Source: Vicinamibacteria bacterium (GTDB lineage: Bacteria; Acidobacteriota; Vicinamibacteria; Fen-336). Taken from it: a DNA stretch of 50,085 nt. Numbering within the stretch: the stretch's first letter is position 1; each line of letters starts with the position of its first letter. This document shows, one piece after another, positions 1-48,576 of the stretch. The notes under the pieces were generated by a model, which ran no database searches, was not told where the DNA came from, and saw only the letters and a list, made by a program, of their open reading frames with translations. The stretch is taken from positions 1 to 50,085 of the forward strand of contig DATBSL010000034.1 of NCBI GenBank assembly GCA_036559805.1, written 5' to 3'. The translations under genes were made by a program, and so were the position numbers.

Positions 1-1145
1 CGCATGTTGTAGTTCGAGGCCATCGCGAAGCCGTAGGCGCCGGCGTCGCGAACCAGCAGCAGCTCGCCCGGCTCGACGCGCTCGAGCTCGCGGGCGCGCG
101 CCAGGAAGTCGCTCGTCTCGCAGACCGGGCCGACCACGTCCACGAGCTCCAGCGGCCGCTCGCGCGTGCGCACCGGCTCGATCCGGTGGAACGCCTGGTA
201 CAGCGACGGACGCAAGAGGTCGTTCATCCCGGCGTCCACCACGACGAAGCGCTTGCCGTGGCCCTGCTTCACGTACAGCACGCGCGTCAGCAGCGCCCCT
301 GCCGGCGCGACCAGCGAGCGCCCCGGCTCGAGCAGCAGCGTGAGCGGCAGGCCCTGGAGCGCCGGCAGCACCGCGGCCGCCAGCCGCGACGCGTCGGGAA
401 CGCCGGCGCCGTCGTAGCTCACACCCAGGCCGCCGCCGATGTCGATCGTCTCGAGCTTGAAGCCCTCGTCGAGCAGGGTGCGGCTGAGATCCGCAAGGGC
501 GACGGCTGCGCCGGCGAGCGGTGCCGTGTCCACGATCTGCGAGCCGATGTGGCTCTGGACCCCGATCACCTCGATTCCCGTACGCTCGCGCGCGCGGCGC
601 AGGATCGGCAGCGCCGCAGCGATGTCCACGCCGAACTTGTTCTCGCGCAGACCGGTCGAGATGTACGGGTGCGAGCGCGCGTCGATGTCGGGGTTGACGC
701 GGAGCGACAGCCGCGCGCGCATCCTGCGAGCCGTCGCGGCGGCGGCGAGCCTCTCGATCTCGTCCTCGCTCTCCGCGTTCCACTCGCCGATCCCGTGCTC
801 GAGGCCGAGCGCCAGCTCGGCGTCGGTCTTCCCGACGCCCGCGAACACGATCCGCGACGGCGGGAAGCCCGCCCGCAGCGCGGCCAGCAGCTCGCCGCCC
901 GAGACGATGTCCGCACCCGCGCCGAGGCTCGCCAGCAGCTTGAGGATCGCCCCGTTGCCGTTGGCCTTGACCGCGTAGCAGATGCGGTGCGGCACCGCCG
1001 CGAAGGCGCGCGCGTATGCGGCGTAGGCCGCCTCGATCGCGGCCCGGCTGTAGACGTAGAGCGGCGTGCCGTGCTCGGCGGCGGCGGCCTCGAGGGACAC
1101 GCCGTCGCACAGCAGCTCCGCGCCGGCGCGGACGAATCCGGTCAC
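1..1145 (-). CDS. lysA: diaminopimelate decarboxylase (PLP-dependent); the 3' end runs off the left edge of the window
   Basis: Hand translation of the minus strand from GTG at 1145 gives VTGFVRAGAELLCDGVSLEAAAAEHGTPLYVYS...ICYAVKANGN...HIGSQI...DIGGGLGV...EPGRSLVAPAG. At the window edge it reads LLVRDAGAYGFAMASNYNMR. The frame is open all the way to position 1. It is absent from the ORF track because there is no stop in the window. The GTG overlaps the TGA of the upstream transporter (GTGA). Confidence 0.88.
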   Translation of the reverse strand, partial: MTGFVRAGAELLCDGVSLEAAAAEHGTPLYVYSRAAIEAAYAAYARAFAAVPHRICYAVKANGNGAILKLLASLGAGADIVSGGELLAALRAGFPPSRIVFAGVGKTDAELALGLEHGIGEWNAESEDEIERLAAAATARRMRARLSLRVNPDIDARSHPYISTGLRENKFGVDIAAALPILRRARERTGIEVIGVQSHIGSQIVDTAPLAGAAVALADLSRTLLDEGFKLETIDIGGGLGVSYDGAGVPDASRLAAAVLPALQGLPLTLLLEPGRSLVAPAGALLTRVLYVKQGHGKRFVVVDAGMNDLLRPSLYQAFHRIEPVRTRERPLELVDVVGPVCETSDFLARARELERVEPGELLLVRDAGAYGFAMASNYNM

Positions 1146-2524
1146 GATGCGGCCGCCCCCGCGCCGACCCGCGCGCGCTCTTCCTCGTCCTTCAGCAGTC
1201 GCGCGACGACGCCGCTCAGGCCGACGACACCCACGAGGTTCGGGAAGATCTGCAGCCCGTTCATCAGGTCGCCCCAGGCCCAGATCAGGTCGACGCGCCC
1301 CGTCGCGCCGAAGACCACGAGGCCGCTGTAGAGCCAGCGGTACGGCGTCACGACTCGCGGCCCGAAGATGTACTCGAGGAACTGCTCGCCGTAGTACGCC
1401 CAGCCGATCAGGGTCGTGTAGCCGAACATGAAGGAGCAGAACGCCACGACCCAGCCTCCCACGACCGGGATCGCCTGGTTGAAGGCCGCCGCGACGGCCG
1501 GCGTGCTGGTGAGGCCCGAGCGCCAGACGCCGGTCACCAGGATCGTGAGCGCGCTCATCGTGGAGGTGACGAACGAGATGATGAACACCTCGAGCACCGC
1601 GGCGTATCCCTGCAGCACCGGCCGCTCGCTCTGCGCGGTACCGTAGACGACTGCCGCCGTGCCGTAGCCGGCCTCGTTCGCGTACATGCCGCGCGCCAGC
1701 CCGTAGCGCATCGCGACCATGATGCCGATCCCCGCCGCGCTGCCGGCGGCCGCGCGGAAGGAGAAGGCCTCCGTCACGACGAGCGCGAGTGTCGCAGGGA
1801 GCCTTTCCGCGTGGAGCAGCAGCACCAGCATGCCCCCCGCGAAGTACAGGATCACCTTGGCGGGCGCCAGCTTCTCGGCGACGCGGCCGATCGACTTCAC
1901 CCCGCCGACGATCACGAGCCACGTGAGCAGCGCCACGCCGATCCCGGTCGCGAGCGGCGGCACGCCCAGCTCGCTCTCCAGCACCACAGCGATCGAGTTG
2001 GGCTGGGTGAACGGCGTCGTGGTGAGCGCCGCGATCCCGGCGATGAGCGCGTAGAGCCAGCCGAGCCGCGGCATCCCGAGCCCGTCGCGCAGGTAGTGCA
2101 TCGGCCCCGCCGAGAGCCGGCCCTCGCCGAGCTGGCGGTAGCGCACGCCGAGCACCGCCTCCGCGAACTTGATCGCGGTCGCCACGATGCCGTAGCACCA
2201 GATCCAGAACAGGGCTCCCGGCCCGCCCGAGACGATCGCCGTCGCGACGCCGGCGATGTTGCCGGTTCCGATCGAGGCCGCGAGAGCGGTCGTGAACGCC
2301 TGGAAGGGCGTGAGCGCCCCGCCGCCCCTGGCCGGCGCGCGCCGCATCGCCGCGAGCGCCTCGCGCCAGTGGACGAACTGCACCATGCGAAAGCGCAGCG
2401 TCAGAAAGATTCCGATCCCGAACAAGAGCGCGATCGTCCAGGGCCCGTAGACGAGGTCGCTCGCCGTGAACACGGCGCGCGAGAAGGCCGCGGCTGCCCT
2501 GTCGATCAAGCTGTGCTCGTCCAC
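1142..2524 (-). CDS. alanine/glycine:cation symporter (AGCS family)
   Basis: This is the C-terminal roughly 460 aa of ORF 1142..2857(-). It is polytopic and has AGCS-like motifs (FQAFTTALAASIGTGNIAGVATAI, GPGALFWIW). The first roughly 110 aa of the track ORF are Arg/Ala-rich junk. I chose GTG 2524 (VDEHSLIDRAAAAF...) as the start; TTG 2509 is an alternative. Confidence 0.85.
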   Translation of the reverse strand: MDEHSLIDRAAAAFSRAVFTASDLVYGPWTIALLFGIGIFLTLRFRMVQFVHWREALAAMRRAPARGGGALTPFQAFTTALAASIGTGNIAGVATAIVSGGPGALFWIWCYGIVATAIKFAEAVLGVRYRQLGEGRLSAGPMHYLRDGLGMPRLGWLYALIAGIAALTTTPFTQPNSIAVVLESELGVPPLATGIGVALLTWLVIVGGVKSIGRVAEKLAPAKVILYFAGGMLVLLLHAERLPATLALVVTEAFSFRAAAGSAAGIGIMVAMRYGLARGMYANEAGYGTAAVVYGTAQSERPVLQGYAAVLEVFIISFVTSTMSALTILVTGVWRSGLTSTPAVAAAFNQAIPVVGGWVVAFCSFMFGYTTLIGWAYYGEQFLEYIFGPRVVTPYRWLYSGLVVFGATGRVDLIWAWGDLMNGLQIFPNLVGVVGLSGVVARLLKDEEERARVGAGAAAS

Positions 2525-2659
2525 GCGGCGCGACCTCGCTCCCCCTCGTCGTCCGGCCGCGACATCATAGACCAGCGTGCCGGGGCGGTCTGGCAGCTCT
2601 TCATGCTTTTGCGCACCCTCCGGGGGCGGGGCGGGAGTACCATCCACACGGAGACGAAA

Positions 2660-3082
2660 ATGAAGAGCTGGATCGCGACTGGCATCGTGAGCGGCCTCGC
2701 CCTCGCGGCACCCGCCTGGGCCCAGCGGTCGGCCACGGCCCGAGAGACGAAAGCCGATGAGCTCAAGGCCAGGCTGGACAAGGGCGAGAAGCTGCTGGTG
2801 ATCGACGTGCGCAGCGACGAGGAGATCCAGAGCGGCTCCATCCCCGGCGCGCTCCATATCCCGATGGAGCAGCTCGAAGCCCGGATGAAGGACGTGCCGA
2901 AGGACGTGCAGCTCGTCTTCACCTGAAACGGCGGCGGCAGGAGCTCCCGTGCTGCGGAGCTCTTCGAGAAGAACGGCTACCAGACCGCGACGTTCTGCCC
3001 GCTCAACGACTGGAAGGCCAAGGGGTTCAAGACCGACTCGCCGAAGAAGGCTCCGCCGGGACCCATCAAACCCGATCCGTAG
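2660..3082 (+). CDS. exported single-domain rhodanese (PspE-like sulfurtransferase) with an in-frame TGA (2924-2926) at the catalytic Cys position; candidate selenoprotein, alternatively a pseudogene
   Basis: ATG 2660 is preceded by GGAGA. The signal peptide is MKSWIATGIVSGLALAAPAWA. The rhodanese core is LLVIDVRSDEEIQSGSIPGALHIP...DVQLVFT-[TGA]-NGGGRSSRAAELFEKNGYQTATFCP. The same frame is open from 2927 to TAG 3080-3082. The ORF track stops at 2926. Confidence 0.6.
2939..2964 (+). promoter_or_regulatory. candidate bacterial SECIS-like hairpin downstream of the in-frame TGA
   Basis: AGGAGCUCC (2939-2947) pairs with GGAGCUCUU (2956-2964) over 8-9 bp including one G-U pair. The 8-nt apical loop CGUGCUGC contains GU. 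The stem starts 15 nt after the U of UGA. Confidence 0.4.
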
Positions 3083-3143: not shown

Positions 3144-3171
3144 GCTCAACTCGGGGCGCCCCGAGTTGCAG
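3144..3171. repeat. 28-nt palindrome-containing repeat, copy 1 (GCTCAACTCGGGGCGCCCCGAGTTGCAG); probable terminator hairpin after the rhodanese gene
   Basis: Identical 28-mer to 30345-30372. The core CAACTCGGGGC/GCCCCGAGTTG is a perfect 22-nt palindrome. It is intergenic, between the rhodanese and epimerase genes. Confidence 0.8.
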
Positions 3172-6487: not shown

Positions 6488-6516
6488 AGGGTACTGCAGC
6501 TAAAGTTTTACTTCAA
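6488..6516 (-). promoter_or_regulatory. candidate sigma70-type promoter for the secreted-protein/MinD-like/J-HTH genes
   Basis: On the minus strand: TTGAAG (6516-6511), a 17-nt spacer, then TACCCT (6493-6488), about 18 nt upstream of ATG 6469. It sits in an unusually AT-rich 40-nt patch. Confidence 0.35.
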
Positions 6517-7361
6517 GTAGTGTCTGAAGTCCTGCCAACTGACATCCGTCCGGGCAGCTCCATGCGCATCGAACGGACAGCGGCTGGGTCGAGGCCCCGA
6601 CGCACGGCGATCATCTCGGCCAGGATGCTGACCGCGATCTCGTCGGGAGTCTGGGCGCCGATCTCGAGCCCCATCGGGGCGTGGACGCGCGCGAGCCGCT
6701 CCCGGGCGACTCCCCGCTCCTCGAGCGCGCTGAAGATGTGAACGACCTTGGGCCGGCTGCCGAGGAGCCCCACGTAGCGCGAGCCGCGCGCGAGCGCGGC
6801 CTCGAGCGCCTCGGCGTCCCCCTTGTGCCCGCGCGTCACGACGACGGCGTACGAGCGGGGCCCGAGCGTCATCCGCTCCGCTGCGGCCGCGAAGCCGTCC
6901 ACCAGGATGAGATCGGCCTCCGGGAAGCGTTCGGCATTGGCGTACTTGACGCGGTCGTCGCACAGCTCGACGCGGAAGCCGCACGCCTTTGCCATCCGCG
7001 CGAGCGGCTGCGCCACGTGGCCGGCTCCGAAGAGGCACAGCACAGGAACGCCCTCGATCGGCTCGATGAACACCTGCATCTTCCCCCCGCAGACGAGCCC
7101 GTCCTCGCCCGCCTGCTCCGGCGTCAGGTCGTAGGCCGCGAGCCGCGGCCGGCCCGCCTCGATCGCCTCGCGGGCGCGCCAGCTCATCTCCGCCTCGAGG
7201 CAGCCGCCCCCGATCGTCCCGAAGATGCGCCCGTCCGCGTAGACCAGCATGCGGGCGCCCGCCCGCTGCGGCGTCGAGCCCTCGGTGGACACGACCGTGA
7301 CGAGGGCCGCGCGCTCGCCGCGCGCCTCGGCCTCGAGCGCCGCCGCCAGGACTTCACGCAC
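6513..7361 (-). CDS. XdhC/CoxI-family accessory protein
   Basis: ORF 6513..7361(-), GTG start. The N-terminal XdhC_CoxI pattern is ALVTVVSTEGSTPQRAGARMLV...GTIGGGCLE. The C-terminal Rossmann-like part is LCLFGAGHVAQPLARMA...VVVTRGHKGD. Confidence 0.85.
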   Translation of the reverse strand: MREVLAAALEAEARGERAALVTVVSTEGSTPQRAGARMLVYADGRIFGTIGGGCLEAEMSWRAREAIEAGRPRLAAYDLTPEQAGEDGLVCGGKMQVFIEPIEGVPVLCLFGAGHVAQPLARMAKACGFRVELCDDRVKYANAERFPEADLILVDGFAAAAERMTLGPRSYAVVVTRGHKGDAEALEAALARGSRYVGLLGSRPKVVHIFSALEERGVARERLARVHAPMGLEIGAQTPDEIAVSILAEMIAVRRGLDPAAVRSMRMELPGRMSVGRTSDTT

Positions 7362-7373
7362 CGCTCAGGAGCC

Positions 7374-10300
7374 TCAGTGAACCGGCGCGCCGAGCCGTTC
7401 GAGCGCCGCTTGCAGCATTCTACGGTCGAGCGGGTGCGGGAGGCACTCGCGGAAGCGCCCGACCGCGTCGTCGGCGGCGCCCAGCAGCAGGATCGGCACC
7501 TCGCGCGTCGTGGCCTGCTCGGAGAGCCGCTCGGCGACCTCGTCGGCCCGAAGCCGCGGCAGGATGCGCTCGAGCACGAGCGCCGCCGGCCGCAGCCGCG
7601 CCGCCGCCTCGACCGCCTCGACGCCGTCCTGGACCTCGTGCACCGCGAAGCCGAGCGGCTCGGCGGTGCGGCGCACGTCCCGGCGCGTCCCGGCGTCGGA
7701 GGTCGCGAGCACCAGCACCGGCATGCGCGACTGGGCCGACGCGCCGAACAGCGGCAGCGTGAAGCTGAAGGTCGAGCCCTCGCCGGGCCGGCTCTTGACC
7801 TCGAAGCGGCCGCCGTGGGCGCGCACGAAGCGCTCGCAGATCGACAGCCCCAGGCCGAAGCCCTCGATCCCGCTCGCCTTGCGGTCGCGCAGCCGCGAGA
7901 ACGGCCGGAACAGCTTGGCGAGGTCGTCCGAGGCGATCCCGATGCCGTGGTCGCTCACGCTCACGACCGCGGTCTCGCGCTCCCGCCTCACCGAGAGCCG
8001 CACCTCGCCACCGCCCGGCGAATACTTCATCGCGTTCTGGAGCAGGTTCTCGACCACCTCGGCGATGCGCTCGCCGTCCGCCCACGCCGGCAGCGGCTCG
8101 TCGGGCAGCTCCACGATCAGCGGGTGCTCCGGGTCGGAGCGGAACTGCGCCGCCGTCTCGCGCAGCCGCGAGCCGAGCTCGACGAGCCGGAAGTCGAAGG
8201 CGAACTGCCCGGTCTCGAGCCGCGTCGTCTCGAGCGTGCGGTCCATGAGCGCGGCCATGCGCGAGGCGGCGCCCACGATCGCCTGCGCCTTGGCGCGCTG
8301 GTCCTCGCGCGGCGCGGCGCCGTCCGCGGCCAGCTGCTCCGCCCAGCCCAGGATCGCGGCGAGCGGCGAGCGGAAGTCGTGCGCCACCACGTTCACGAGC
8401 TCGCTCTTGGTGCGGTCGAGCTCGACCAGGCGCGCATTCGTGTGCTCGAGCGTCCCGTACAGCTCTGCGTTGCGCAGCAGGATCCCGATCCCGTCGGCGA
8501 GCGTCTGCAGCGTGATCACCTGCCCGCGGTCGAAGGCCATCGAACGGTCGCCCTCGACGTACAGCACGGCGGCGACCTCGTCCGCCACCAGGATCGGAAC
8601 GGCGAGCGCGCTGGCGGCGTCCTTCGACTGCGGCGCAAAGCCGGGATCGCCCTCGCCCGCGACGACCGTGACGCGCTCGCGCAGCGCGCGCCCCTGCGGG
8701 CCTTCCGCGAGCGGCGAGCCCGCCCAGCCCTCGTCGCGGCCGCTGCGGCCCGCCGCCGCAGCGATCCGGAACACCTCGCCCTCCGGCACGAGCATGGCGA
8801 CGAGCCCCGGGCGAAACGCGTCCTGGATCCGCGCCACCGCCGTCCCGAGGATGCGCTCGCGCGACAGGAGCGCGGCCGACTCGCGCAGGACCCCGTTCAC
8901 GAGCGCGAGCTGATCGCTGCGCTCGCGCTCCGCGGCGAACGCCACGGAGTTGGCGACGGCGATCGAGAGCTGGCCCGCGAAGCGCGTCAGGTACTCGAGG
9001 TCGTCGTCGGTAAAGGGCTGCGAGCCCGGTCGCCGGGTCGCGTTCAGCACGCCGTAGAGCACGGTCGCCGAGCGATCGCGGTCGAAGTGCGTGAGCGGCA
9101 CGCACAGGATCCGCGTGACCGGGTTTTCGCGCGGCACGAAGTCCTCGTGCTTCTCGGCCTCGTTGACGAGCACGGGCAAGAGGTCGCGCGCCACGCGCCC
9201 GGCGATGCCCTCGCCCAGCTTGAAGCTCGGCCGAGGCTCAGGCGGGGGGGACGGCTCGCTCGCCCACACGGCGAACAGGCGCAGCAGCCGCTCGCGGTCG
9301 TCGTAGCGGAACACGGAGCTGTGGTCCGCGCGGATCAGCCGGCCGGCCTCCTCGGTGGCGCGCGCGAAGAGCGCCTGCAGATCGGTGAGCGCCGACGTCT
9401 CGAGGCCCAGGTCGTAGAGCGTCGCCATCTGCCGGGCCAGGTGCTCGGTCGCCGCCTCGCTCTCGGCGCGGCGCAGCGCGAGCGCGAGCTGGCCGCCGAG
9501 CGTCGAGAGCAGGCTCGTCTCCTCCTCGTCGAAGGCCCCGGGCCGGCCGCGCAGCACCGTCAGCACGCCGAGCGCGTGCTCGCCCGCGCGCACGGGCACC
9601 GCCAGCTCCGTGGCCGCCTCGCTGCGCGAAGCCTCGAGCGGCGCGGCGAGCCGCAGCGCCCAGCGCAGCGCCTCGGGGTCGAGTGTCCCCGGCTCGATCC
9701 CCGCCTCGGCCTCGACGAAGAGCGATCCGTCCGGCCGCGGCGCGTGGAACGCCGCGCGCTCGAAACCGAGGTCGCGCTGCACGCGCTTCACCGTCAGGTC
9801 GAGCAGCCGCGCGCGCCCCGAGACCGCGGCCATGTCGCCGACGAGCGCCGCCAGGCGCTCGAAGCGCGCCGCCTGGCGCCGCTTCTGGTCGAAGGTCTGG
9901 CGGCTGCGCAGGAAGGTCGCGACGGGGCCCGCGAAGGTGGACAGGATCTGGACGTCGCCCTCGCTGAAGCCGCCGGGCTTGTCCGCTGCGCCGAGGAGGC
10001 CGATCAGCTCGCCCTCGGCCAGGAGCGGCACCAGCACCACCGACTCGGCCTCGGCCATGAGGCCGATCTCCTGCGACAGCCGCGGGTCGAGCCCGGGCTG
10101 GTTGCTGACGTAGGGCCGGCCGCTGCGCGGGCTCCACAGGCTCCGGTACTCGGGCCGCGCGACGTAGCGGAACGCCCTGGCCCGCTCGTCGGAGAGCCCG
10201 TGCACCGGCAGCGCCGCCTCCATGGTCCGCGTCGCGGGGTCGTGGAGCGCGATCCCGACGATCGGCGCGCCGATCAGGCCGGAGAGCCGCTGCGTCAGCA

Positions 10301-10787
10301 TGCGGTTGAACTCGGCGGGCTCGGCGATCAGCGACCAGTCGCGGCCGATCTCGTGCAGCCGCGACAGGTCCCGGGCGCGCGACTGCGCCTGCTCGCGGCT
10401 GCGCGCGAGCTCGTCGTGGGTCGACTTGAGGCGCAGGAAGGCGCGCACCTTCAGGATCAGCGCCGGGGTGTCGATCGGCTTGTGCAGGAAATCGTCGGCC
10501 CCGGCCTCGTAGCCGCGCCGCACGGCCACCGGGTCCCCGAACGCCGTCATCATGATCACGGGCAGGTGCGGCCCGTGCAGCTCGCGGATGCGCGCGCAGG
10601 TCTCGAAGCCGCTCATTCCTGGCAGGCGCAGGTCGAGCAGCACCAGGTCGAAGACGCCGGCCGCGAGCTCCTCGATCCCGCGCTCGCCCGACTCGGCGCG
10701 CGTCGCCGCGTAGCCGTGCAAGCTGAGGAGGTCGAGAAGCGTCTTGCCGACGAGAGCGTCGTCGTCGACGACCAGCACCTGGGCCAT
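7374..10787 (-). CDS. hybrid sensor: N-terminal receiver (REC), multiple (about 4) GAF-like domains, HisKA/HATPase_c kinase, and a C-terminal degenerate receiver-like domain
   Basis: ATG 10787 (MAQVLVVDDDALVGK...DLVLLDLRLPGMSG...KPID) gives a canonical REC. This is followed by a long GAF-like region, the H-box VVAHDFRSPL, the N/G boxes NLLQNAMKYS and GFGLGLSICERFV, and a C-terminal REC-like fold with LVLER and HP replacing the phospho-Asp and Lys. The track ORF start (11366) adds 193 non-protein-like residues. Confidence 0.85.
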   Translation of the reverse strand: MAQVLVVDDDALVGKTLLDLLSLHGYAATRAESGERGIEELAAGVFDLVLLDLRLPGMSGFETCARIRELHGPHLPVIMMTAFGDPVAVRRGYEAGADDFLHKPIDTPALILKVRAFLRLKSTHDELARSREQAQSRARDLSRLHEIGRDWSLIAEPAEFNRMLTQRLSGLIGAPIVGIALHDPATRTMEAALPVHGLSDERARAFRYVARPEYRSLWSPRSGRPYVSNQPGLDPRLSQEIGLMAEAESVVLVPLLAEGELIGLLGAADKPGGFSEGDVQILSTFAGPVATFLRSRQTFDQKRRQAARFERLAALVGDMAAVSGRARLLDLTVKRVQRDLGFERAAFHAPRPDGSLFVEAEAGIEPGTLDPEALRWALRLAAPLEASRSEAATELAVPVRAGEHALGVLTVLRGRPGAFDEEETSLLSTLGGQLALALRRAESEAATEHLARQMATLYDLGLETSALTDLQALFARATEEAGRLIRADHSSVFRYDDRERLLRLFAVWASEPSPPPEPRPSFKLGEGIAGRVARDLLPVLVNEAEKHEDFVPRENPVTRILCVPLTHFDRDRSATVLYGVLNATRRPGSQPFTDDDLEYLTRFAGQLSIAVANSVAFAAERERSDQLALVNGVLRESAALLSRERILGTAVARIQDAFRPGLVAMLVPEGEVFRIAAAAGRSGRDEGWAGSPLAEGPQGRALRERVTVVAGEGDPGFAPQSKDAASALAVPILVADEVAAVLYVEGDRSMAFDRGQVITLQTLADGIGILLRNAELYGTLEHTNARLVELDRTKSELVNVVAHDFRSPLAAILGWAEQLAADGAAPREDQRAKAQAIVGAASRMAALMDRTLETTRLETGQFAFDFRLVELGSRLRETAAQFRSDPEHPLIVELPDEPLPAWADGERIAEVVENLLQNAMKYSPGGGEVRLSVRRERETAVVSVSDHGIGIASDDLAKLFRPFSRLRDRKASGIEGFGLGLSICERFVRAHGGRFEVKSRPGEGSTFSFTLPLFGASAQSRMPVLVLATSDAGTRRDVRRTAEPLGFAVHEVQDGVEAVEAAARLRPAALVLERILPRLRADEVAERLSEQATTREVPILLLGAADDAVGRFRECLPHPLDRRMLQAALERLGAPVH

Positions 10788-10863
10788 CGGAATCGGCAGT
10801 TTGGCCCCCGGGGCCTTGGGCGTCAAGGCGCCGGGTATACTAGCGGTCTCCAGGCGAAGCCAG

Positions 10864-12555
10864 ATGACCCAGGAAAAGCCGCCGCAAGGCGGCCTCGCCG
10901 TTCTCGCCGAGGCGTTCCGGTCCAGGCGGACGGGTGTGCTCGTGGTGGGCCAGGAACACGCGGCGATCCGCGTCCAGCTCGAGGCGGGGCAGATCGTCGC
11001 GCTCGGGCTTGCGGGCGGGGACGGCGGTAGCCTTCCGAGACCCAGCGATTCGGTGAGGCTGCGGCTCGAGCGCGTGCTCACCGAGATCGGGATGCGCAAG
11101 CCGAGCGTCCAGGCCCCGGCCTCGCCTGGAAGCCTGCGCGACAGGCTGGTCGAGCGCCTGGCCGACCTCGAGCACGAGTCGCGCTTCGACGACGGCGCCG
11201 AAGCGCCGCAGGGCCTGATGGAGATACCGGTGGCGACCGAGCCGCTGATCCTGGATGCCGTGCGCCAGGTGCGCCACGACGACGCCGTGCGCCAGGCGCT
11301 CGGCGACCTCGACCGGCGGCTCGTCGCGACGGCGGCGCTCGCGGACGAGCGCACGCTGACGCTCACCGAGGGCTACCTGCTGTCCCGCATCGACGGCATG
11401 GTGTCGGTGCGCGACGTGCTCGAGCTGGTGCCGCTCGACCCGCAGGAAGCCGAGCGGGCGCTGCTCGGACTCGTGCTCACGGGCCGCGTCGAGTTCCGCG
11501 CGGCAGGCCCCAGGCTCGCGGGGCCGGAACCGCTGGCCGAGGTCGCGGCCCCGACGGAGCCCTTCCGCCCCCTCGCGGCCACGGCGCCGGACGCCGCGGA
11601 CACGGAGCCTCACGACGCCCCGGACATCATCGCCGAGGCGGACGATGACGACCCGCTGCCCGTCGAGGCGGTGCCCGACGACGAGCCCCCCAGCTCGCCC
11701 GCCGAAGCTCCCGAGGCTCCGCTCCCGGTCCAGGCGGCGAAGGTGCCGCTCGACCCCGCCACGATCGAGAGGCGGCGCGAGATCCTCGAGTTCTTCCAGG
11801 CGCTGCCGCTCAAGAACCACTTCGAGGTGCTCGGCGTGGAGCCGGGCTGCACCGACGCCGACGTGCGACGCGCCTACGTCGCGCTCGTCAAGAGATTCCA
11901 CCCGGACGCCCAGCGCGACGCGCGCATCCAGGACATCAGCGACATCCTGGAGGCCATCTTCATCCGGGTGGGCGAGGCGTGGGAGGTGCTGGGTGAGGCG
12001 CGCAGCCGGGCCTCCTACGAGTCCCGCTCCGGCATCGTGCGTCGCACGAGCAGCGTGCCACGCCAGCCGGCGACGGCCGCCAGTACCCAGGTCACGCCCA
12101 CGCCGCCCGTGGCGCCGGCTCCCGAGGAGGAGCCGGGCGCCTACGTGCCCCCCGAAGAGATCCTGATGCGAGCGAAGCGGCTCCTGACGCAGGCTCGCTA
12201 CTGGGACGCGATCCAGATGCTCGAGTCGGCCCTGCCCCGGATGGAGCCGCGCAGCCAGCAGCACCGCGGCCGTCTGCTGCTCGCGCGCGCCTACTCCAAG
12301 AACCCCAACTGGCTGAGGCGCGCCGAGGAGACGCTCCACCAGCTGCTGCGGGAGGATCCCACGAACGCGGACGCGCACTACGAGCTGGGCCTCGTCTACA
12401 AGGCCAGCGGGCTCGACGCTCGAGCCCAGGGCATGTTCAAGCGCGCCGTGGAGCTGCGGCCCGGCCACAAGGACGCCTCGGCAGAGCTGGGCATCCTCCC
12501 CGGCGAGGGCGGCAGCCTCTTCAAGCGGCTGTTCAAGCGGGGCCAGGCTTCTTGA
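10864..12555 (+). CDS. DUF4388-like N-terminal region, acidic/Pro-rich linker, J-domain (HPD present) and C-terminal TPR protein
   Basis: ATG 10864 (MTQEKPP...). The J-domain is NHFEVLGVEPGCTDADVRRAYVALVKRFHPDAQRD. The TPR-like C-terminus is ARYWDAIQMLE...NADAHYELGLVYKASGLDARAQGMFKRAVELRP. Confidence 0.8.
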   Translation: MTQEKPPQGGLAVLAEAFRSRRTGVLVVGQEHAAIRVQLEAGQIVALGLAGGDGGSLPRPSDSVRLRLERVLTEIGMRKPSVQAPASPGSLRDRLVERLADLEHESRFDDGAEAPQGLMEIPVATEPLILDAVRQVRHDDAVRQALGDLDRRLVATAALADERTLTLTEGYLLSRIDGMVSVRDVLELVPLDPQEAERALLGLVLTGRVEFRAAGPRLAGPEPLAEVAAPTEPFRPLAATAPDAADTEPHDAPDIIAEADDDDPLPVEAVPDDEPPSSPAEAPEAPLPVQAAKVPLDPATIERRREILEFFQALPLKNHFEVLGVEPGCTDADVRRAYVALVKRFHPDAQRDARIQDISDILEAIFIRVGEAWEVLGEARSRASYESRSGIVRRTSSVPRQPATAASTQVTPTPPVAPAPEEEPGAYVPPEEILMRAKRLLTQARYWDAIQMLESALPRMEPRSQQHRGRLLLARAYSKNPNWLRRAEETLHQLLREDPTNADAHYELGLVYKASGLDARAQGMFKRAVELRPGHKDASAELGILPGEGGSLFKRLFKRGQAS

Positions 12556-40693: not shown

Positions 40694-40713
40694 GCGCGAG
40701 CGGAACCTCCCGA

Positions 40714-41709
40714 GTGCTGCTGCGCCGACGCGACTTCCTGGGCCAGGCCGCTGCCGCCGCGGGCGGCGCCGCCGCCTGCCGCGGGCGCGCCAGCGGGAAG
40801 ATCGTGCTCCGCCTCTCGCACTCGATGGCCTCCGGGCCGACGGCGCTGCACTCGTTCGCCGAAGCCTTCCGCGAGCTGGCCGAGGCGGCGACCGCCGGCG
40901 CCATCGAGGTGCGCGTGTTCGCGAGCGGCACGCTCGGCCACGAGCGCGAGGTCGTCCAGCAGCTCCAGGAGGGCCTCGTCGACTTCATGATCTCGGGCAC
41001 GGCGATCTGGGGCAGCGTCGCCCCGAAGCTGCAGCTCTTCGATTTCCCTTTCCTGTGGCGCGACGTCGGACACCTGCACGGCGTCGTAGACGGCGGCGTT
41101 GGCCGCGAGGCGGCCGACTACATGCAGGCCAGCGTCCACGTCAGGCCGCTCGCGTGGGGCGACTCGTTCGGCTTCCGGCAGGTGATCACGCGCTCGCGCG
41201 AGGTGACCGAGCCGGCGGACCTGCGCGGCCTGAAGATCCGCACGATCCAGTCGCCGATCTACGTCAAGGCGGTCGAGCTGATGGGCGCGAGCCCCACGCC
41301 GATGGCATTCGGCGAGGTCTACACCTCGATGCAGACTGGGGTGATCGACGGCTACGAGCACGACGCCAGCACCACGCTGCAGCAGCGCTTCTTCGAGGTC
41401 GCGCGCTACATGGCGCGCACGCAGCACATCGCCGGCCTGCTGGGCCTCTTCGGCTCGGCCGCGGGCCTGAGCCGGCTGCCGGCCGAGCTGCGGCCGAAGC
41501 TCGAGGCCGCGGCGCTCGAAGCCGCGGCTCGCCAGCGAGCCATGGGCGCGCGCGAGGACACGGAGGCGACGCGGCAGCTCGCCGAGCATGGAATGACGAT
41601 CCACGAGATCGACCGGAGCGCGTTCCGCGGCCCGGCCGAGGCGCTCTGGCAGGAGCAGTCGCGCGCGCTCGGAGCCGAGGCATGGCTGCGCGAGGCACTC
41701 GCCTCGTGA
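40714..41709 (+). CDS. TRAP transporter solute-binding protein (DctP family) with a Tat-type signal
   Basis: GTG 40714 gives VLLRRRDFLGQAAAAAGG. Motifs are IEVRVFASGTLGHEREVVQQLQEGLVDF, LKIRTIQSPIYV and GVIDGYE. Confidence 0.85.
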   Translation: MLLRRRDFLGQAAAAAGGAAACRGRASGKIVLRLSHSMASGPTALHSFAEAFRELAEAATAGAIEVRVFASGTLGHEREVVQQLQEGLVDFMISGTAIWGSVAPKLQLFDFPFLWRDVGHLHGVVDGGVGREAADYMQASVHVRPLAWGDSFGFRQVITRSREVTEPADLRGLKIRTIQSPIYVKAVELMGASPTPMAFGEVYTSMQTGVIDGYEHDASTTLQQRFFEVARYMARTQHIAGLLGLFGSAAGLSRLPAELRPKLEAAALEAAARQRAMGAREDTEATRQLAEHGMTIHEIDRSAFRGPAEALWQEQSRALGAEAWLREALAS

Positions 41710-43553
41710 GCGCGCACGACGCCGCGCACGAGCCCGCGCGAAACCGCTCGGCCGCCGGCCGCGTTCTGGACTGGACGACCGGCTTGCTGGTGGCGGCGCT
41801 CGCCGCAGTCGTCGGCCTGCAGGTCGTCGGCCGCCACCTGCTCCACACCCCCTGGCCGTGGACCGAGGAGATCGCCCGCCTGCTGCTCGTGTGGCTGATG
41901 TGCTTCGGCGGCATCCGGGCGCTCCAGGACGCGGAGCATCCGCGCGTGACGGCGCTCGTGCGCCGGCTCGCGCCCGGGCGGCGCGCAGCTGTCGACCGCG
42001 GCCTTCGCCTGGTGCTGCTGGCCTTCTTCGGCTGCCTGCTGGTTCCTGCGTGGCGCCTCACGCGCTCGAGTGCTTCGGAGACGCTGCCGGCGAGCGGGGT
42101 CTCGGGAGCGGCGCTCACGGCGGTCCTGCCGCTCGCGCTCCTGGCGATGTGCCTCGTGCTCGTGCTGCAGCTCCGGCGCGGCCAAGAAGGGGCGAGCGTC
42201 GCCTGGTCGCTCGGCACGGCCGGGCTGGTGATGGCGTCGGTCCTGGCGCCGCTCCTCGCCGGCGCCGCGCCGCTGCTGGTGCTCGTGATCGGCTTCCTGG
42301 TCACGGCCGGGCTCGGCCTGCCGCTCGCCTTCACGCTCGCGCTCACGGCCGCGACCTACCTCGCCGGCATCGGCGGCGTGAGCCTCACGATCCTGCCGAT
42401 CAAGCTCCTGGGCGGAGTCGACTCGTTCGTGCTGCTCGCGATCCCGCTCTTCATCCTGGCCGGCGCGCTCATGGAGTCGGGCGCCATCTCCGAGCGCATC
42501 GTGGACCTGGCGATGGCGATCGTGGGGCGCGTGAAGGGCGGCCTGGCGATGGTCGTGGTCGTCGCCGAGGTGCTCTTCTCCGGCATCTCGGGCTCGACGG
42601 CCGCCGACGTGTCGGCGATCAGCTCGCTGCTGATCCCCTCGCTGCGCAAGGCCGGCTACTCCGGGCCCGAGGCCGTGAGCGTCGTCTCGGCCTCCTCGGC
42701 GATGGGAATCCTGGTGCCGCCGTGCCTGACGATGGTGGTGCTCGGCTCGCTCGTGAACCTGTCGATCGTGACCCTCTTCCTGGCCGGCTTCCTGCCGGCC
42801 TTCCTGCTGGCCGGAATGCTGCTGCTGCTGATCGCGGCGCGCGCGCGCCGGCAGGGTTGGCCCGTCGCGGAAAAGGCCTCGCGCGCGGACCTCGGCCGCG
42901 CCGCCCGCCGCGCGATCGTCCCGCTCGGACTGCCGCTGCTGCTGTTCGGCGGCATCTTCAGCGGCATCACGACCGTCACCGAGGCGGCGCTCATCGCCGT
43001 CGTCTACGCGCTCGTCGTCGGGATCGCGACCGGAGGCCTCACCCGCGCCAACCTGCCGCACCTCTTCGAGCGCAGCGGCGTCGTCACCGCCACGACGCTC
43101 TGGGTGCTGGCGGCCGCCTCGGCCTTCGCCTGGATCCTGGTCCGCGAGTGGGTGCCGCAGACGCTCGGCGAGTGGATCGCCGGCATTGGCGCCAGCAAGG
43201 CGCTGTTCCTCGCGCTCACGCTCTTCGTCTTCGTCGTGATCGGGGCGCTCCTCGAGGGGCTGCCGGCGCTCTTGATCTTCGGGCCGATCCTGTTCCCGAT
43301 CAGCCGGGCGCTGCACGTGGACCCGGTCCACTACGGCATCGTGATCGTCGCGGCGATGGGGATCGCGTTCTTCCTCCCGCCGGTGGGTGTCGGCCTCTCG
43401 ATCGCGAGCGCCATCGCGCGCCTCGACGTGGACGAGGTGACGCACAGCTACTGGCCCTACCTGCTGGTGCTGCTCGCCGGCCTCGCCCTGATCGCGGCCT
43501 GGCCCGGCCTCACGTTGGCGCTGCCCCGGCTGTTGCTGGGCTACAAAGGATAG
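41706..43553 (+). CDS. TRAP transporter fused small/large permease (DctQ-DctM fusion)
   Basis: GTG 41706 overlaps the DctP stop (GTGA). The N-terminal 4-TM DctQ-like part (WTEEIARLLLVWLMCFG) is followed by a DctM-like part (LAIPLFILAGALMESGAISERIVD, FSGISGSTAADV). Confidence 0.85.
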   Translation: MSAHDAAHEPARNRSAAGRVLDWTTGLLVAALAAVVGLQVVGRHLLHTPWPWTEEIARLLLVWLMCFGGIRALQDAEHPRVTALVRRLAPGRRAAVDRGLRLVLLAFFGCLLVPAWRLTRSSASETLPASGVSGAALTAVLPLALLAMCLVLVLQLRRGQEGASVAWSLGTAGLVMASVLAPLLAGAAPLLVLVIGFLVTAGLGLPLAFTLALTAATYLAGIGGVSLTILPIKLLGGVDSFVLLAIPLFILAGALMESGAISERIVDLAMAIVGRVKGGLAMVVVVAEVLFSGISGSTAADVSAISSLLIPSLRKAGYSGPEAVSVVSASSAMGILVPPCLTMVVLGSLVNLSIVTLFLAGFLPAFLLAGMLLLLIAARARRQGWPVAEKASRADLGRAARRAIVPLGLPLLLFGGIFSGITTVTEAALIAVVYALVVGIATGGLTRANLPHLFERSGVVTATTLWVLAAASAFAWILVREWVPQTLGEWIAGIGASKALFLALTLFVFVVIGALLEGLPALLIFGPILFPISRALHVDPVHYGIVIVAAMGIAFFLPPVGVGLSIASAIARLDVDEVTHSYWPYLLVLLAGLALIAAWPGLTLALPRLLLGYKG

Positions 43554-44408: not shown

Positions 44409-44413
44409 CAGCC

Positions 44414-44435
44414 CCTGACAATCGCCTGACATTCG
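44414..44435 (+). promoter_or_regulatory. tandem 11-mer direct repeat upstream of the HK/RR operon (candidate OmpR-type response-regulator binding site)
   Basis: CCTGACAATCG (44414-44424) and CCTGACATTCG (44425-44435) are 10/11 identical with an 11-nt period. They lie 18 nt upstream of ATG 44453. Confidence 0.35.
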
Positions 44436-44452
44436 GGCGACCGTTCGAGGCG

Positions 44453-46042
44453 ATGATGGGCGCGATGACCCGCCTGACCGAGCCGCTGCTGGCCGGGCTC
44501 GCGCTCACGCTCCTGGCATTCGGCGTCATCTCCGACCGTGCGCTCGCCGAGCGGGCGCGCCGCGAGCGCGATACGGCTCAGGCGGCGGCGGTCGAGTCGG
44601 CACGGCTCACGGCGCTTTCCGTTCGCGCGGCGCTCGCGCAAGTCGAGCAGGCCGTAACGGTCGAGCGGCCTCCGGTGGGCGTCGCGGTCGATCGCCTGGC
44701 CGGGATGCCCCCCCTCGCCGCCCAGGCCACGACGGTTCCCTACTCACGGCGCTCGCGCCCGGAGCTGGCGCGCCTGCTCTCGTCGACGCGGGCGACACCG
44801 AACGGCCTTCCCGAGGCCGTCGTGGCCCGCATCGCCCTCGGCGACTCGCCCGTGAGCCTCGGCAGCGAGGCGCCGCCCGACGTCGGGGAGCGCCTGCTGT
44901 CGGGACGCCTTCCCGTCCGACCCAACGACCTCCCCTACCTCGCGGCGCAGCTCGGACTCGGAGCCGACCCTCGAGTCGCGAGCCTGCTCGAGCGCCTGCG
45001 TCGAGCGCCCGCGGGCGGGCTCCCGTCGCTTCCTGCGTTCCGCAGAACCCGGACGGCGCAAGACCGGGTCGAAGGCTGGTCGCAGGCGGCAGACGACCGC
45101 CTCTTCTACTCGATTCCGGTCGCGACGCTCGTCGCGCGCGCCGGCGTCGCGCAGCGGCTGCTCGCGCCCGGCGCGGCCGTCGGCCTGGCAGCCGAGGTGC
45201 CCGACGTGGCTGGACTGACCCTGCGCGTCGCTGCCGACGCGCACGCGGGCACGGGCGGCGAGCGCCTGCGGCTCGCGCTGTGGGTTGCCGTCGTGGCGGG
45301 AGCCCTCGGCCTCGTGGCGGTGCGGCGCGCGCTCGTCCGCGAGGCGAAGGCGACCGCGCGCGAGAAAGCGTTCCTCGCCGGGGTCACACACGAGCTGCGC
45401 ACGCCGCTCTCCGCGATCCGCCTCTTCGGCGAGACGCTCGCCGGCGGCCGCGGCGATCCCAGGGAGTACGGCGCGCTCGTGGCTCGCGAGAGCGAGCGGC
45501 TCGAGAGCCTGGTCGAGCGCGTGCTGGCCGTCACCCGCGTGGACGAGGCGCCGACGTTCGCGCCGGTGACTCCCACGGCCCTCGTGGCCTCGGCCGTCGC
45601 CCTGATCCGCCCGCGGGCCGAGCGGCGCGAGGTGACGCTCGAGACCCGGCTCGGCCCGGGCCTGCCCCAGGCGCAGTGGGACGAGGAGGCCGTCAGGCGC
45701 GCGCTGCTGAGCCTCCTCGACAACGCGGTGACGCACGGCCGCGAGCGCGGCCACGTGACGGTCGTGGCGGTCGAAGACTCGGGCGTCGTCAAGGTCTCCG
45801 TCAGCGACGACGGTCCCGGCATCGCGCGGCGCGACCGCGGGCGCGTTTTCGGGCGCTTCGTGCGCGGCGCGAACTCCGCTTCGGGGACCGGACTCGGCCT
45901 GCACCTCGCAGAGCAGGTAGCGCGCGCGCACGGCGGCCGCATCGACCTCGCGACGGAAGCGGGGCGCGGCACCACCTTCACGCTCGTCCTGCCGCTCGTG
46001 CCCGCCGCCGCGCGCGCCGGCCAGCCGGGAGCCAGCTCGTGA
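44453..46042 (+). CDS. sensor histidine kinase (two TM segments, periplasmic domain, HisKA, HATPase_c)
   Basis: The H-box is FLAGVTHELRTPLSAI, the N box LLDNAVTHG, and the G boxes DDGPGI and GTGLGLHLAEQVARAHGG. The start is ATG 44453, with 44465 as the alternative. Confidence 0.88.
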   Translation: MMGAMTRLTEPLLAGLALTLLAFGVISDRALAERARRERDTAQAAAVESARLTALSVRAALAQVEQAVTVERPPVGVAVDRLAGMPPLAAQATTVPYSRRSRPELARLLSSTRATPNGLPEAVVARIALGDSPVSLGSEAPPDVGERLLSGRLPVRPNDLPYLAAQLGLGADPRVASLLERLRRAPAGGLPSLPAFRRTRTAQDRVEGWSQAADDRLFYSIPVATLVARAGVAQRLLAPGAAVGLAAEVPDVAGLTLRVAADAHAGTGGERLRLALWVAVVAGALGLVAVRRALVREAKATAREKAFLAGVTHELRTPLSAIRLFGETLAGGRGDPREYGALVARESERLESLVERVLAVTRVDEAPTFAPVTPTALVASAVALIRPRAERREVTLETRLGPGLPQAQWDEEAVRRALLSLLDNAVTHGRERGHVTVVAVEDSGVVKVSVSDDGPGIARRDRGRVFGRFVRGANSASGTGLGLHLAEQVARAHGGRIDLATEAGRGTTFTLVLPLVPAAARAGQPGASS

Positions 46043-46737
46043 GCGCGCGGCTGCTGCTCGTGGAGGACGAGCTGTCGCTCGCGCGCGGCCTCGTCGACAA
46101 CTTCCGGGCGGAAGGCTACGACGTTCGCCACGTCGCGCGCGGCGACCTCGCGATGGACGCCCTCCGCGAGTTCGATCCCGAGGTCGTGCTGCTCGACATC
46201 ATGTTGCCGGGGCGCTCGGGGCTCGATCTGCTCGTGGAGCTCCGCCAGGCGGGTGAGCGCGTGCCGGTGCTGATGCTCACGGCCAAGGGCGAGGTGGTCG
46301 ACCGCGTCGTGGGCCTCGAGTTGGGCGCCGACGACTACCTGGCCAAGCCTTTCGCGCTGCGCGAGCTCCTGGCCAGGGTGCGGGCCCTCCTCCGGCGTGC
46401 CACGGCCCCGGCCCGCGAAGTCGTCGCCGAGCTGGAGCTGGGCGGCGTGCGCTTCGACTTCCGCGGGCTCACGGCCACGGGCGCCCGCGAGCCGGTCGTA
46501 CTCACCACCCACGACATCCTGGTGCTCAAGGTGCTCGCCGAGCGCCGCGGCGAGGTCGTGCCGCGCATCGACATCGTCGAGGAGGTCTCCGGCCTCGACT
46601 CCGAGACCACGCTGCGCAAGGTGGACAACCACGTGGTGGCGCTGCGGCGCGCGATCGGCGACGACCCGCGCCGGCCGCGCCTGATCCACACCGTGCGCGG
46701 CAGCGGCTACCGCCTCGCGCGCGCCGACAATGGCTGA
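46039..46737 (+). CDS. OmpR/PhoB-family response regulator
   Basis: The GTG overlaps the HK stop (GTGA). The receiver has LLLVEDE, VVLLDIMLPG, LMLTAKG and KPF. The winged-helix part has VVLTTHDILVLKVLAERRGEVVPR...VRGSGYRL. Confidence 0.9.
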   Translation: MSARLLLVEDELSLARGLVDNFRAEGYDVRHVARGDLAMDALREFDPEVVLLDIMLPGRSGLDLLVELRQAGERVPVLMLTAKGEVVDRVVGLELGADDYLAKPFALRELLARVRALLRRATAPAREVVAELELGGVRFDFRGLTATGAREPVVLTTHDILVLKVLAERRGEVVPRIDIVEEVSGLDSETTLRKVDNHVVALRRAIGDDPRRPRLIHTVRGSGYRLARADNG

Positions 46738-46784
46738 CACGCGGCAGACGTGCGCAAGACGCGAATGCTTCAGATTCCTCCCGT

Positions 46785-46803
46785 GGCGTCCGGCACGGAC
46801 GCC
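46785..46803 (+). terminator. GC hairpin after the response-regulator gene (candidate terminator)
   Basis: GGCGTCCG (46785-46792), loop GCA, CGGACGCC (46796-46803). It lies 48 nt after the stop. There is no U-tract. Confidence 0.4.
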
Positions 46804-46826
46804 CGCGAACGGATAGGAGGAACGAA

Positions 46827-47792
46827 ATGCACGTACGACGGTGCACGACGCTCGCGGCCGCCCTGGCGCTCGCCGCCAGCCTGGCGGCGGCACAGGCGAC
46901 CGATCCCGGCGACCGGATGGCTCAAGGCAAGCTCCAGGCCGACCTCGGCCACATGAGCGAGGCCGCGGCGGCGTTCGACGCCGTGGCCCAGGATCCCCGC
47001 GCCAGCGACGCACAGAGGTGGGAGGCGCTCGTGCGCCTCGGCGTCGCCCGGCGGGCGACGGGAGACGATGCGGGGAGCGTCGCGGTGTTCCAGAAGGTGA
47101 TGGCCGACTTCGCTGACGACCCGGAGGCCGTCCGGTTCCTGGTTCTGTCGGTGGGTGGCGCCTTGCCGGGCCGCGACCGCTGGGACGCGATCTGGCGCGA
47201 CGTGCGAATCGAAGTCGAGGGCGCGCGCAGCGGCCGGCCGCAGGCCGTCGTGGTCTGGCCGGGCGTGGCTCGGGCGCTCCCTTCGACCACCGGCAAGACG
47301 ATGGACGTCGACTTCGAGCAAGCCGAGCTCCGCGAGCTTTATCGCTTTTTCGCGGACTTCACCGGCCTGAACGTCGTCGTCCAGCCGGGCGCGCTCGGGC
47401 AGGCTACGATCCGCGCGCGGAAGGAGCCGTGGGAGCGCGTGCTCGAGAGGATCCTGGCTCCCAACGGCCTCGCGTATCGCCTCGAGGGCAACGTGCTGTG
47501 GATCGCCCAGGCCTCGGTCGTGGCCGGATGGCCGGCGCGGGCTTTCACGGGAGAGGCCGTCGACGTCCTCTTCCAGAACGAGGACTTGCGCGACGCGTTC
47601 GGCTGGTTCGCCCGCCAGGGCGGGCTCGAGCTGTCACTGTCGCCGGAGGTCGCCGGGCACGTGACGCTCCGGCTCGAGCGGGTGCCATGGGACCAGGCGC
47701 TCGACGTCGTGCTCCGCGTCAACGGCCTGGAGCAGCGCCGCCAGGGCTCACGAGTGGAGATCGCACCCCGACGAGCGGCTCCGCGAAGCTGA
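46827..47792 (+). CDS. secreted protein with a TPR-like N-terminus and two PilQ/secretin N-terminal-type domains but no secretin pore domain
   Basis: It has a signal peptide. The two repeats are MDVDFEQAELRELYRFFADFTGLNVVVQPGALGQATIRARKEPWERVLERILAPNGLAYRLEGNVLWI and VDVLFQNEDLRDAFGWFARQGGLELSLSPEVAGHVTLRLERVPWDQALDVVLRVNGL. Both resemble the PilQ N-terminal repeat pattern. Confidence 0.75.
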   Translation: MHVRRCTTLAAALALAASLAAAQATDPGDRMAQGKLQADLGHMSEAAAAFDAVAQDPRASDAQRWEALVRLGVARRATGDDAGSVAVFQKVMADFADDPEAVRFLVLSVGGALPGRDRWDAIWRDVRIEVEGARSGRPQAVVVWPGVARALPSTTGKTMDVDFEQAELRELYRFFADFTGLNVVVQPGALGQATIRARKEPWERVLERILAPNGLAYRLEGNVLWIAQASVVAGWPARAFTGEAVDVLFQNEDLRDAFGWFARQGGLELSLSPEVAGHVTLRLERVPWDQALDVVLRVNGLEQRRQGSRVEIAPRRAAPRS

Positions 47793-47809
47793 GGCTGCGC
47801 GCGAACGAA

Positions 47810-47837
47810 GGCCACGGGGACAAGTGTCCCCGTGGCC
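47810..47837. terminator. 12-bp GC hairpin between convergent genes (bidirectional terminator candidate)
   Basis: GGCCACGGGGAC (47810-47821), loop AAGT, GTCCCCGTGGCC (47826-47837). It lies between stops 47792(+) and 47845(-). Confidence 0.6.
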
Positions 47838-47844
47838 CCGTCGT

Positions 47845-48516: not shown

Positions 48517-48576
48517 CGTTCCCCCTCCTCCACCTAGCATGCCACGCCGCTTGACCCCGCGGATAGCGGCGGCTAC

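Follow-up and report, generated by a model that had tools for sequence, protein, structure and literature searches.

An in-frame UGA at the catalytic position of a predicted secreted rhodanese in Acidobacteriota: a probable selenocysteine codon

Introduction

Rhodanese-related sulfurtransferases carrying selenocysteine (Sec, U) were predicted in 2005 (Zhang & Gladyshev) and were also recorded in the selenoproteomes of the Sargasso Sea, the Global Ocean Sampling (GOS) data and an Olavius symbiont (PMC1088965, PMC2398784, PMC1976440). In a 2026 review, five forms of rhodanese selenoproteins are distinguished, of which forms 2 and 4 belong to PF00581/COG0607 and show the motif UxxG (PMC13188914). 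Some Acidobacteriota are known to decode Sec (PMC1794560; PMC12013277; PMC13582414), and a literature search on Vicinamibacteria and selenocysteine returned nothing relevant. Here, we describe a rhodanese gene with an in-frame TGA at the position of its catalytic cysteine, located on contig DATBSL010000034.1 of a Vicinamibacteria bacterium (assembly GCA_036559805.1). The whole stretch analysed, 50,085 nucleotides of the forward strand, is referred to as the window. An earlier interpretation of this DNA, made without database searches (the sequence-only reading), had proposed a selenocysteine sulfurtransferase and had noted that such proteins are predicted in metagenome surveys, which is correct (PMC1088965, PMC2398784, PMC13188914).

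With a probability of roughly 85%, judged from sequence comparison, we take the UGA to be a Sec codon in a secreted rhodanese, within a clade of Acidobacteriota that is of considerable size and in which the gene is systematically mis-annotated. Four observations form the basis of this reading, namely a conserved in-frame UGA, a translated downstream part, the location of the codon at the catalytic cysteine and a conserved hairpin.

Results

Gene structure and reading frame

From the ATG at 2660, the frame is open up to an in-frame TGA at codon 89 (2924-2926) and then continues for 51 codons without a further stop until it ends on a TAG. The joined translation reads MKSWIATGIVSGLALAAPAWAQRS...KDVQLVFT-TGA-NGGGRSSRAAELFEKNGYQTATFCPLNDWKAKGFKTDSPKKAPPGPIKPDP-stop and comprises 140 residues including U89. 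A scan for interrupted genes identified this as the only site in the window where a TGA lies inside one gene with a coding-type GC content at third codon positions (GC3) on both sides; two other hits were discarded, being the boundary of adjacent genes and an antisense frame. Inspection of the sequence downstream of the TGA revealed neither an in-frame start codon nor a ribosome-binding site (RBS). TGA terminates 14 of the 24 other confidently called genes and is the commonest genuine stop of the window, and thus the codon is not reassigned genome-wide. The coordinates of all features are collected in Table 1.

Conservation of the TGA and the downstream frame

DNA of relatives was obtained from one genome-collection scan and one metagenome scan. 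A protein search with the joined sequence, in which U was written as C, returned more than 100 database entries of 84-90 residues, all ending in ...DVQLVFT and sharing 72-91% identity. Where an organism label is given, it is Acidobacteriota or Vicinamibacteria. Full-length matches to the joined sequence amount to just 7. On the DNA level, every one of the 39 related loci spanning the site has the TGA; these originate from metagenome-assembled genomes (MAGs) of Acidobacteriota/Vicinamibacteria and from soil or sediment metagenomes, and the TGA is likewise present in 30 out of 30 unique sequences, which span codons -45 to +36 relative to the TGA at a pairwise nucleotide identity of 76-99%. Two more distant clades with 50-60% protein identity also carry it, with the local sequences LVFF*NGG (L107/L108) and L[IV]FY*[AG]GG (L111/L115), where the asterisk marks the TGA.

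The extension behind the TGA measures 48-54 codons across the 39 loci. Its terminal stop varies (TGA in 25, TAG in 12 and TAA in 2 loci) while the internal codon is always TGA. According to the Nei-Gojobori method, the ratio of nonsynonymous to synonymous substitution rates (dN/dS) is 0.19 for the 45 codons upstream of the TGA, 0.22 for the 36 codons downstream and 0.26 past the hairpin described below. Synonymous changes are plentiful in the downstream part: glycine +3 and leucine +26 each use four codons and cysteine +24 uses TGC and TGT. The loop U-N-G-G-G-R is conserved in 27 of the 30 sequences, and the remaining 3 show aspartate instead of glycine at +4.

The conserved TGA together with purifying selection downstream implies that the downstream part is translated and selected as protein. 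A pseudogene, a real stop or a sequencing error is thereby excluded. From this pattern of sequence conservation, the TGA at 2924-2926 is best described as a conserved recoding site, neither a stop nor the mark of a decayed gene. This is in good agreement with several points of the sequence-only reading. The frame it had traced from 2660 across the TGA to the TAG is identical to our translation, its view that TGA serves as a genuine stop elsewhere in the window holds for the 14 genes counted above, and the 51 downstream codons, which it had considered unlikely to be the product of random drift, evolve under nearly the same constraint as the upstream part. It had also suggested aligning homologues across the TGA; these show TGA in 39 of 39 cases and Cys or Ser in the few full-length sequences.

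Frameshifted copies were observed on two short metagenome contigs, around position 1376 of L105 just after NGGGR, and at 2553-2785 of L117 upstream of the TGA. They account for 2 of about 41 loci and are most simply explained as assembly errors or rare decay.

A hairpin downstream of the UGA

A perfect inverted repeat starts 13 nt past the UGA, and its core was also found by an independent repeat search. The resulting hairpin (2939-2964) has 9 base pairs, an 8-nt loop with G and then U at loop positions 2-3, and a predicted energy of -13.5 kcal/mol; the spacing between UGA and loop is 21 nt. The published model of the bacterial selenocysteine insertion sequence (bSECIS) demands a loop of 3-9 nt, a stem of 4-16 bp, a G in the first two loop positions, a spacing of 16-37 nt and a minimum free energy (MFE) of at most -7.5 kcal/mol (PMC13188914). 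The hairpin satisfies every one of these constraints, and thus the search for a SECIS behind the UGA, which the sequence-only reading had proposed, yields a hairpin of this type at a suitable distance.

The same hairpin occurs in all 36 sequences of the main clade. The arm codons AGC (+6), TCC (+7), GCG (+10), GAG (+11) and CTC (+12) are constant throughout the 30 unique sequences, whereas the two loop codons vary freely (CGT/CGG and GCT/GCG/GCC) and the Ser, Ala and Leu codons elsewhere in the gene do vary. The third position shows no diversity in 4 of 5 arm codons, compared to 1 of 33 other four- or six-fold degenerate codons (Fisher p = 3e-4, Mann-Whitney p = 5e-4; given the relatedness of the sequences, the p-values are indicative only). 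Just two substitutions are seen in the arms, and each of them turns a G-C pair into a G-U pair. In L107/L108, the main hairpin is retained and contains one bulge. At this place, the distant clade L111/L115 encodes another peptide; its hairpin is a different one of 7 bp, located 17 nt from the UGA, and the loops are GGA and GGC. The presence of the hairpin tracks the TGA, as expected for a SECIS.

Homologues with a sense codon at the Sec site

Full-length homologues carry either Cys (codon TGC; P0001, P0003 and P0004) or Ser (codon TCG; P0002, P0005, P0006 and P0042) at the site. Having Cys homologues at the position of the catalytic nucleophile makes this a Sec/Cys pair, the standard signature for calling selenoproteins (PMC13188914). 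The Cys form L162 encodes the same R-S-S...A-A-E-L residues by AGT TCT...GCA GAG TTG and has no hairpin. The Ser form L163 also lacks it, though the RSS..AAEL peptide is largely retained.

Two further groups were observed. The Cys form found in L160 (2424-2846) and L161 (1077-1499), represented by P0001, is nested in a Sec subclade and has kept the hairpin, and the loop arginine is lost (C-N-G-G-E-L). Its sequence is suggestive of a recent change from Sec to Cys, accompanied by a relaxation of the active site. The sister group with Ser, including L163 (1989-2405) and L165 (1486-1902), reads F-I-S-N-R-G-G-R; loop and signal peptide are otherwise retained and the hairpin is lost. Its sequence suggests that this group is either catalytically dead or repurposed.

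Fold, active site and export of the protein

The joined protein matches PF00581 (Rhodanese) with 58.9 bits against a gathering threshold of 22.2 and covers profile positions 2-88 of 102. The 88-residue product alone reaches 36.1 bits and covers positions 2-66 only. In phmmer alignments against solved structures, the TGA falls on the catalytic Cys of 6mxv (YFYCGGGFRS) and 3tp9 (VYCRTGGRS). The active-site loop U-N-G-G-G-R-S is of the six-residue CX4R sulfurtransferase type, not of the CX5R type of phosphatases and arsenate reductases.

An AlphaFold2 model was made of the Cys homologue P0004, which is 61% identical. Its predicted local distance difference test (pLDDT) score is about 94 over the mature domain and below 50 in the N-terminal 28 residues. 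A helix (97-108), a strand (114-118) and a second helix (119-124) all follow the catalytic residue in this model. A Foldseek search with it retrieved single-domain and fused rhodaneses (3tp9, 6mxv, 3gk5 and others) with a root-mean-square deviation (rmsd) of 1.4-2.3 A for the top matches. Going by the model, an 88-residue product would lack the active-site loop and three fold elements and could not fold as a rhodanese. Both the placement of the TGA at the catalytic Cys and the loss of active site and fold end in a terminated product had been stated in the sequence-only reading; they agree with the structure alignments, the profile coverage and the P0004 model. The cleavable signal peptide noted there is likewise recovered: the N-terminus, by its sequence features, looks like a signal peptide of the general secretory (Sec) type, with K2, a basic N-region, a hydrophobic core and AxA at -3/-1, with no twin arginine and no lipobox Cys, and the layout is the same in relatives. 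Export via the Sec pathway would be expected from these features.

A second cysteine, Cys113, is invariant in the main clade and is also present in the distant TGA clades and in most Cys and Ser forms. In structure alignments, it occupies the place of the first Gly in the GG motif that usually follows the last strand. Judged from the strand topology, it should be near the active-site loop. It is possible that Cys113 acts as a resolving or partner thiol and forms a selenenylsulfide with Sec.

Table 1. Positions of the features of the rhodanese locus within the window.
Feature	Position	Strand	Details and basis
Shine-Dalgarno-like GGAG	2650..2653	+	6 nt upstream of ATG 2660; read from sequence
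Full Sec-rhodanese coding sequence (predicted)	2660..3082	+	Translation; PF00581; alignment of homologues to residues 1-140
Predicted Sec-type signal peptide MKSWIATGIVSGLALAAPAWA	2660..2722	+	21 residues; cleavage after A-W-A, before conserved QRS
UGA, probable Sec codon (residue 89) in place of the catalytic Cys of the CX4R loop (U-N-G-G-G-R)	2924..2926	+	Conservation, Cys/Ser homologues, structure alignment
Translated C-terminal part	2927..3079	+	Remainder of active-site loop, helix, last strand and helix, Pro/Lys-rich tail
Candidate bacterial SECIS hairpin	2939..2964	+	5' arm 2939-2947 AGGAGCUCC; loop 2948-2955 CGUGCUGC; 3' arm 2956-2964 GGAGCUCUU
Conserved Cys113 (TGC), 24 residues after Sec	2996..2998	+	Cys in 30/30 unique sequences, via TGC and TGT
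True stop TAG	3080..3082	+	Relatives stop at the equivalent place with TGA, TAG or TAA

Gene neighbourhood and other features of the window

In the window, the rhodanese gene is surrounded by genes for a Na/Ala symporter, an enolase-superfamily protein and XdhC, which are not conserved beside the gene elsewhere. The neighbours in other loci vary (ChrA, hemerythrin, GH127, DUF2961, PfkB, cytochrome c) and none of them is universal. Since the neighbours are not conserved, no functional conclusion can be drawn from an operon context. A chromate transporter (PF02417) adjoins the rhodanese gene in L002 (8206-9357), L160 (3148-3740) and L161 (1801-2393) and is fused to it in gene call P0034; L002 also contains a PadR regulator. 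A hemerythrin-domain protein with a twin-arginine (Tat) signal is the neighbour in L008, L093 and L101.

A perfect 22-nt palindrome, CAACTCGGGGCGCCCCGAGTTG, is located at 3147-3168, within the 109 nt that separate the stop codon of the rhodanese from the following gene (3192/3207, + strand). It has no T-run and was for this reason not scored by the terminator scan; it may serve as a T-less terminator or as a binding site for a protein. The XdhC/CoxI-family accessory protein (PF02625 and PF13478) is encoded at 6513-7361 on the minus strand, with no molybdenum hydroxylase gene adjacent to it in the window, and its relatives occur in unrelated archaeal and bacterial loci. Due to the GC content of 71%, very long spurious open reading frames (ORFs) appear in non-coding frames and antisense strands, e.g., 6681-11030 (+). 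The mechanically derived ORF that holds the rhodanese start, 1016-2926 (+), reaches 1.6 kb upstream through the Na/Ala symporter in antisense. In the regions 40700-43550 and 44410-48560 (2.9 and 4.2 kb), no frame passed the GC3-based coding filter.

Annotation status

The product of the window is deposited as an 88-residue "rhodanese-like domain-containing protein" (HEY8231392.1, MFI4943716.1), and more than 100 database clusters share the same false stop. The truncation at the TGA by standard annotation, anticipated in the sequence-only reading, is thus documented in these records. Both entries are labelled "[Burkholderiales bacterium]". The close relatives that carry a taxon label are all Acidobacteriota/Vicinamibacteria MAGs, which makes the Burkholderiales bin label look doubtful.

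Discussion

Weighing the interpretations

Several points weigh against the decoding of this UGA as Sec. Within the window and the flanks of the relatives, neither a tRNA nor tRNA-Sec, selA, selB or selD was found; these comprise about 0.3 Mb of the lineage and are uninformative in this respect. A tblastn search with approximate E. coli SelA, SelB and SelD queries against 160 sequences (1.7 Mb) gave nothing in the relevant lineage, the only matches being of GTPase type in the unrelated loci L031 and L146. A scan of the window and the relatives' flanks for a second TGA-interrupted gene was negative, so that no further selenoprotein supports the presence of the machinery. No NCBIfam selenoprotein model reaches its cut-off with our protein, and the presence of selenium in the polypeptide is a prediction from sequence. 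Concerning the hairpin, no two-sided compensatory change occurs in the stem within the main clade, and an Rfam scan of the whole window matched no family at the hairpin or elsewhere. Moreover, 17% of the 806 TGA trinucleotides in the GC-rich window pass the loose bSECIS model, so that structure alone proves little; an equally stable perfect stem is found for 2.9% of them. The hairpin region is no more stable than dinucleotide shuffles (MFE z = 0.53) or than synonymous-codon resamplings of the same peptide with the codon usage of the window. Stability is uninformative here, and the informative signal is the conservation of synonymous sites.

The one live rival assumes that the UGA is read through without SelB and SECIS, position 89 being filled by one of the standard amino acids Cys, Ser or Trp through an opal suppressor, a tRNA-Sec-like allo-tRNA or near-cognate decoding. 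Such read-through predicts equally well that both the TGA and the frame behind it are conserved. Acidobacterial allo-tRNAs with 8/4 and 9/3 structures can indeed suppress nonsense codons in E. coli tests (PMC5389517), and that no Sec machinery was found in window and flanks is compatible with it. Against it, no tRNA of any kind was found near the gene. General suppression would also be costly where 14 of 24 genes depend on TGA as the commonest stop. What makes us regard this explanation as improbable is that it accounts neither for the constancy of synonymous sites in a hairpin located at SECIS distance nor for the loss of the hairpin where TGA is replaced by TGC or TCG; in addition, the site is the catalytic Cys, the classic position of a Sec/Cys pair.

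All public annotations (NCBI, IMG) give the 88-residue product and thus treat the TGA as a real stop, in which case the downstream frame would be a recent pseudogene remnant or a C-terminal part made separately. The frameshifted contigs L105 (after the loop) and L117 (upstream) would fit decay. Against this stand the 39 out of 39 loci that keep the TGA followed by an open frame of 48-54 codons at a dN/dS of 0.22, the terminal stops that interchange between TGA, TAG and TAA while the internal TGA never does, and a product devoid of the active-site loop and three secondary-structure elements; a separate C-terminal product is contradicted by the lack of an in-frame start codon or RBS after the TGA. 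We consider a real stop highly improbable. Still less credit, close to none, can be given to a sequencing or assembly error in place of a true TGC or TGT, or to the idea that TGA has become a sense codon throughout the lineage. Beyond being conceivable a priori in MAG data, nothing favours either: the same TGA recurs in dozens of independent assemblies from different projects, and TGA is the stop codon both of 14 of 24 genes in the window and of 25 of the 39 rhodanese genes.

Proposed mechanism and function

Under the preferred Sec reading, the involvement of SelB and tRNA-Sec, the export, the substrate and the chemistry are what we infer from the observed features. The hairpin at 2939-2964 would recruit SelB with Sec-tRNA(Sec), and the UGA would be decoded as Sec instead of causing termination. 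The pre-protein would then be exported by the Sec translocon and its 21-residue signal peptide removed. In the mature enzyme, the selenolate in the U-N-G-G-G-R loop may accept sulfane sulfur, e.g., from thiosulfate or persulfides, so that an Se-S intermediate would form and subsequently hand the sulfur on, possibly with the invariant Cys 24 residues downstream as partner thiol. By analogy, the most likely function is that of a PspE-like envelope sulfurtransferase with a selenolate nucleophile.

A bolder alternative, which we rate as doubtful, is that these proteins are not classical sulfurtransferases and represent an unrecognised, Acidobacteriota-wide family of secreted selenoenzymes. They would use a Sec89-Cys113 selenenylsulfide couple in the envelope, e.g., for persulfide/polysulfide or chromate/selenite handling. 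The chromate transporters that recur next to the gene in some loci would be in line with this. If true, this would point to a wider use of selenium by abundant aerobic soil bacteria that are currently thought to be poor in selenoproteins.

Under the preferred reading of a Sec-containing secreted rhodanese, a corrected annotation would extend the selenoproteome of Vicinamibacteria-type Acidobacteria, which occur widely in soils and sediments, by one secreted selenoenzyme, and a dedicated annotation model would be justified. The family also offers a natural series for studying why Sec persists at a rhodanese site, consisting of the Sec form, the apparent recent Cys convert with hairpin, the older Cys form without it and the Ser form. 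The repertoire of selenoprotein kinds remains unchanged, as Sec-rhodaneses have been predicted since 2005. The value lies in annotation and in Sec/Cys enzymology, and the finding will not surprise a selenoprotein specialist.

Comparison with known systems

The rhodanese-domain selenoproteins with curated NCBI models, rhodanese_LYCAU (NF041203, form 3) and TsoB (NF045694, form 5), show the motifs CxU and UxxxxU, respectively, in contrast to UxxG in the present protein. Its scores of 39.1 bits against a cut-off of 115 for rhodanese_LYCAU and 23.7 against 805 for TsoB place it outside of both families. The top matches of the protein search include no full-length close relative annotated with Sec.

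With respect to the decoding signal, the candidate hairpin resembles the SECIS of the E. coli fdhF/fdnG type in being a stem-loop within the coding region just 3' of the UGA, in having a G followed by U/G early in the apical loop and in a spacing within 16-37 nt. There is no sequence similarity, and the loop is 8 nt long here, or 3 nt if a mini-stem of C-G and G-U with a bulge is assumed.

E. coli PspE, the periplasmic thiosulfate:cyanide sulfurtransferase (PDB 2jtq), is likewise a small protein in which a signal peptide precedes a single rhodanese domain, and its loop is of the CX4R type. It is the likely functional analogue. PspE differs in carrying Cys, and the present gene lacks the context of a psp operon. 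An equivalog relation to PspE was ruled out by scores below both cut-offs, 29 bits versus 102 for NF007627 and 24.4 versus 126.3 for TIGR02981.

The closest described systems are the rhodanese selenoproteins of forms 2 and 4, represented by the type sequences MBM9537886.1 and MCY3690685.1 and compared here by motif and PF00581 assignment. In these terms, they share with the present clade a single rhodanese domain with Sec in place of the catalytic Cys, U-N-G-G fits UxxG, and both are known from sequence prediction alone. The published representatives belong mainly to Deltaproteobacteria and marine metagenomes, whereas the present clade is found in Acidobacteriota/Vicinamibacteria of soils and sediments and in addition has a predicted signal peptide, a Pro/Lys-rich tail and an invariant second Cys. 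Taken together, the clade is a new member, and possibly a new subfamily, of an already predicted class of selenoproteins.

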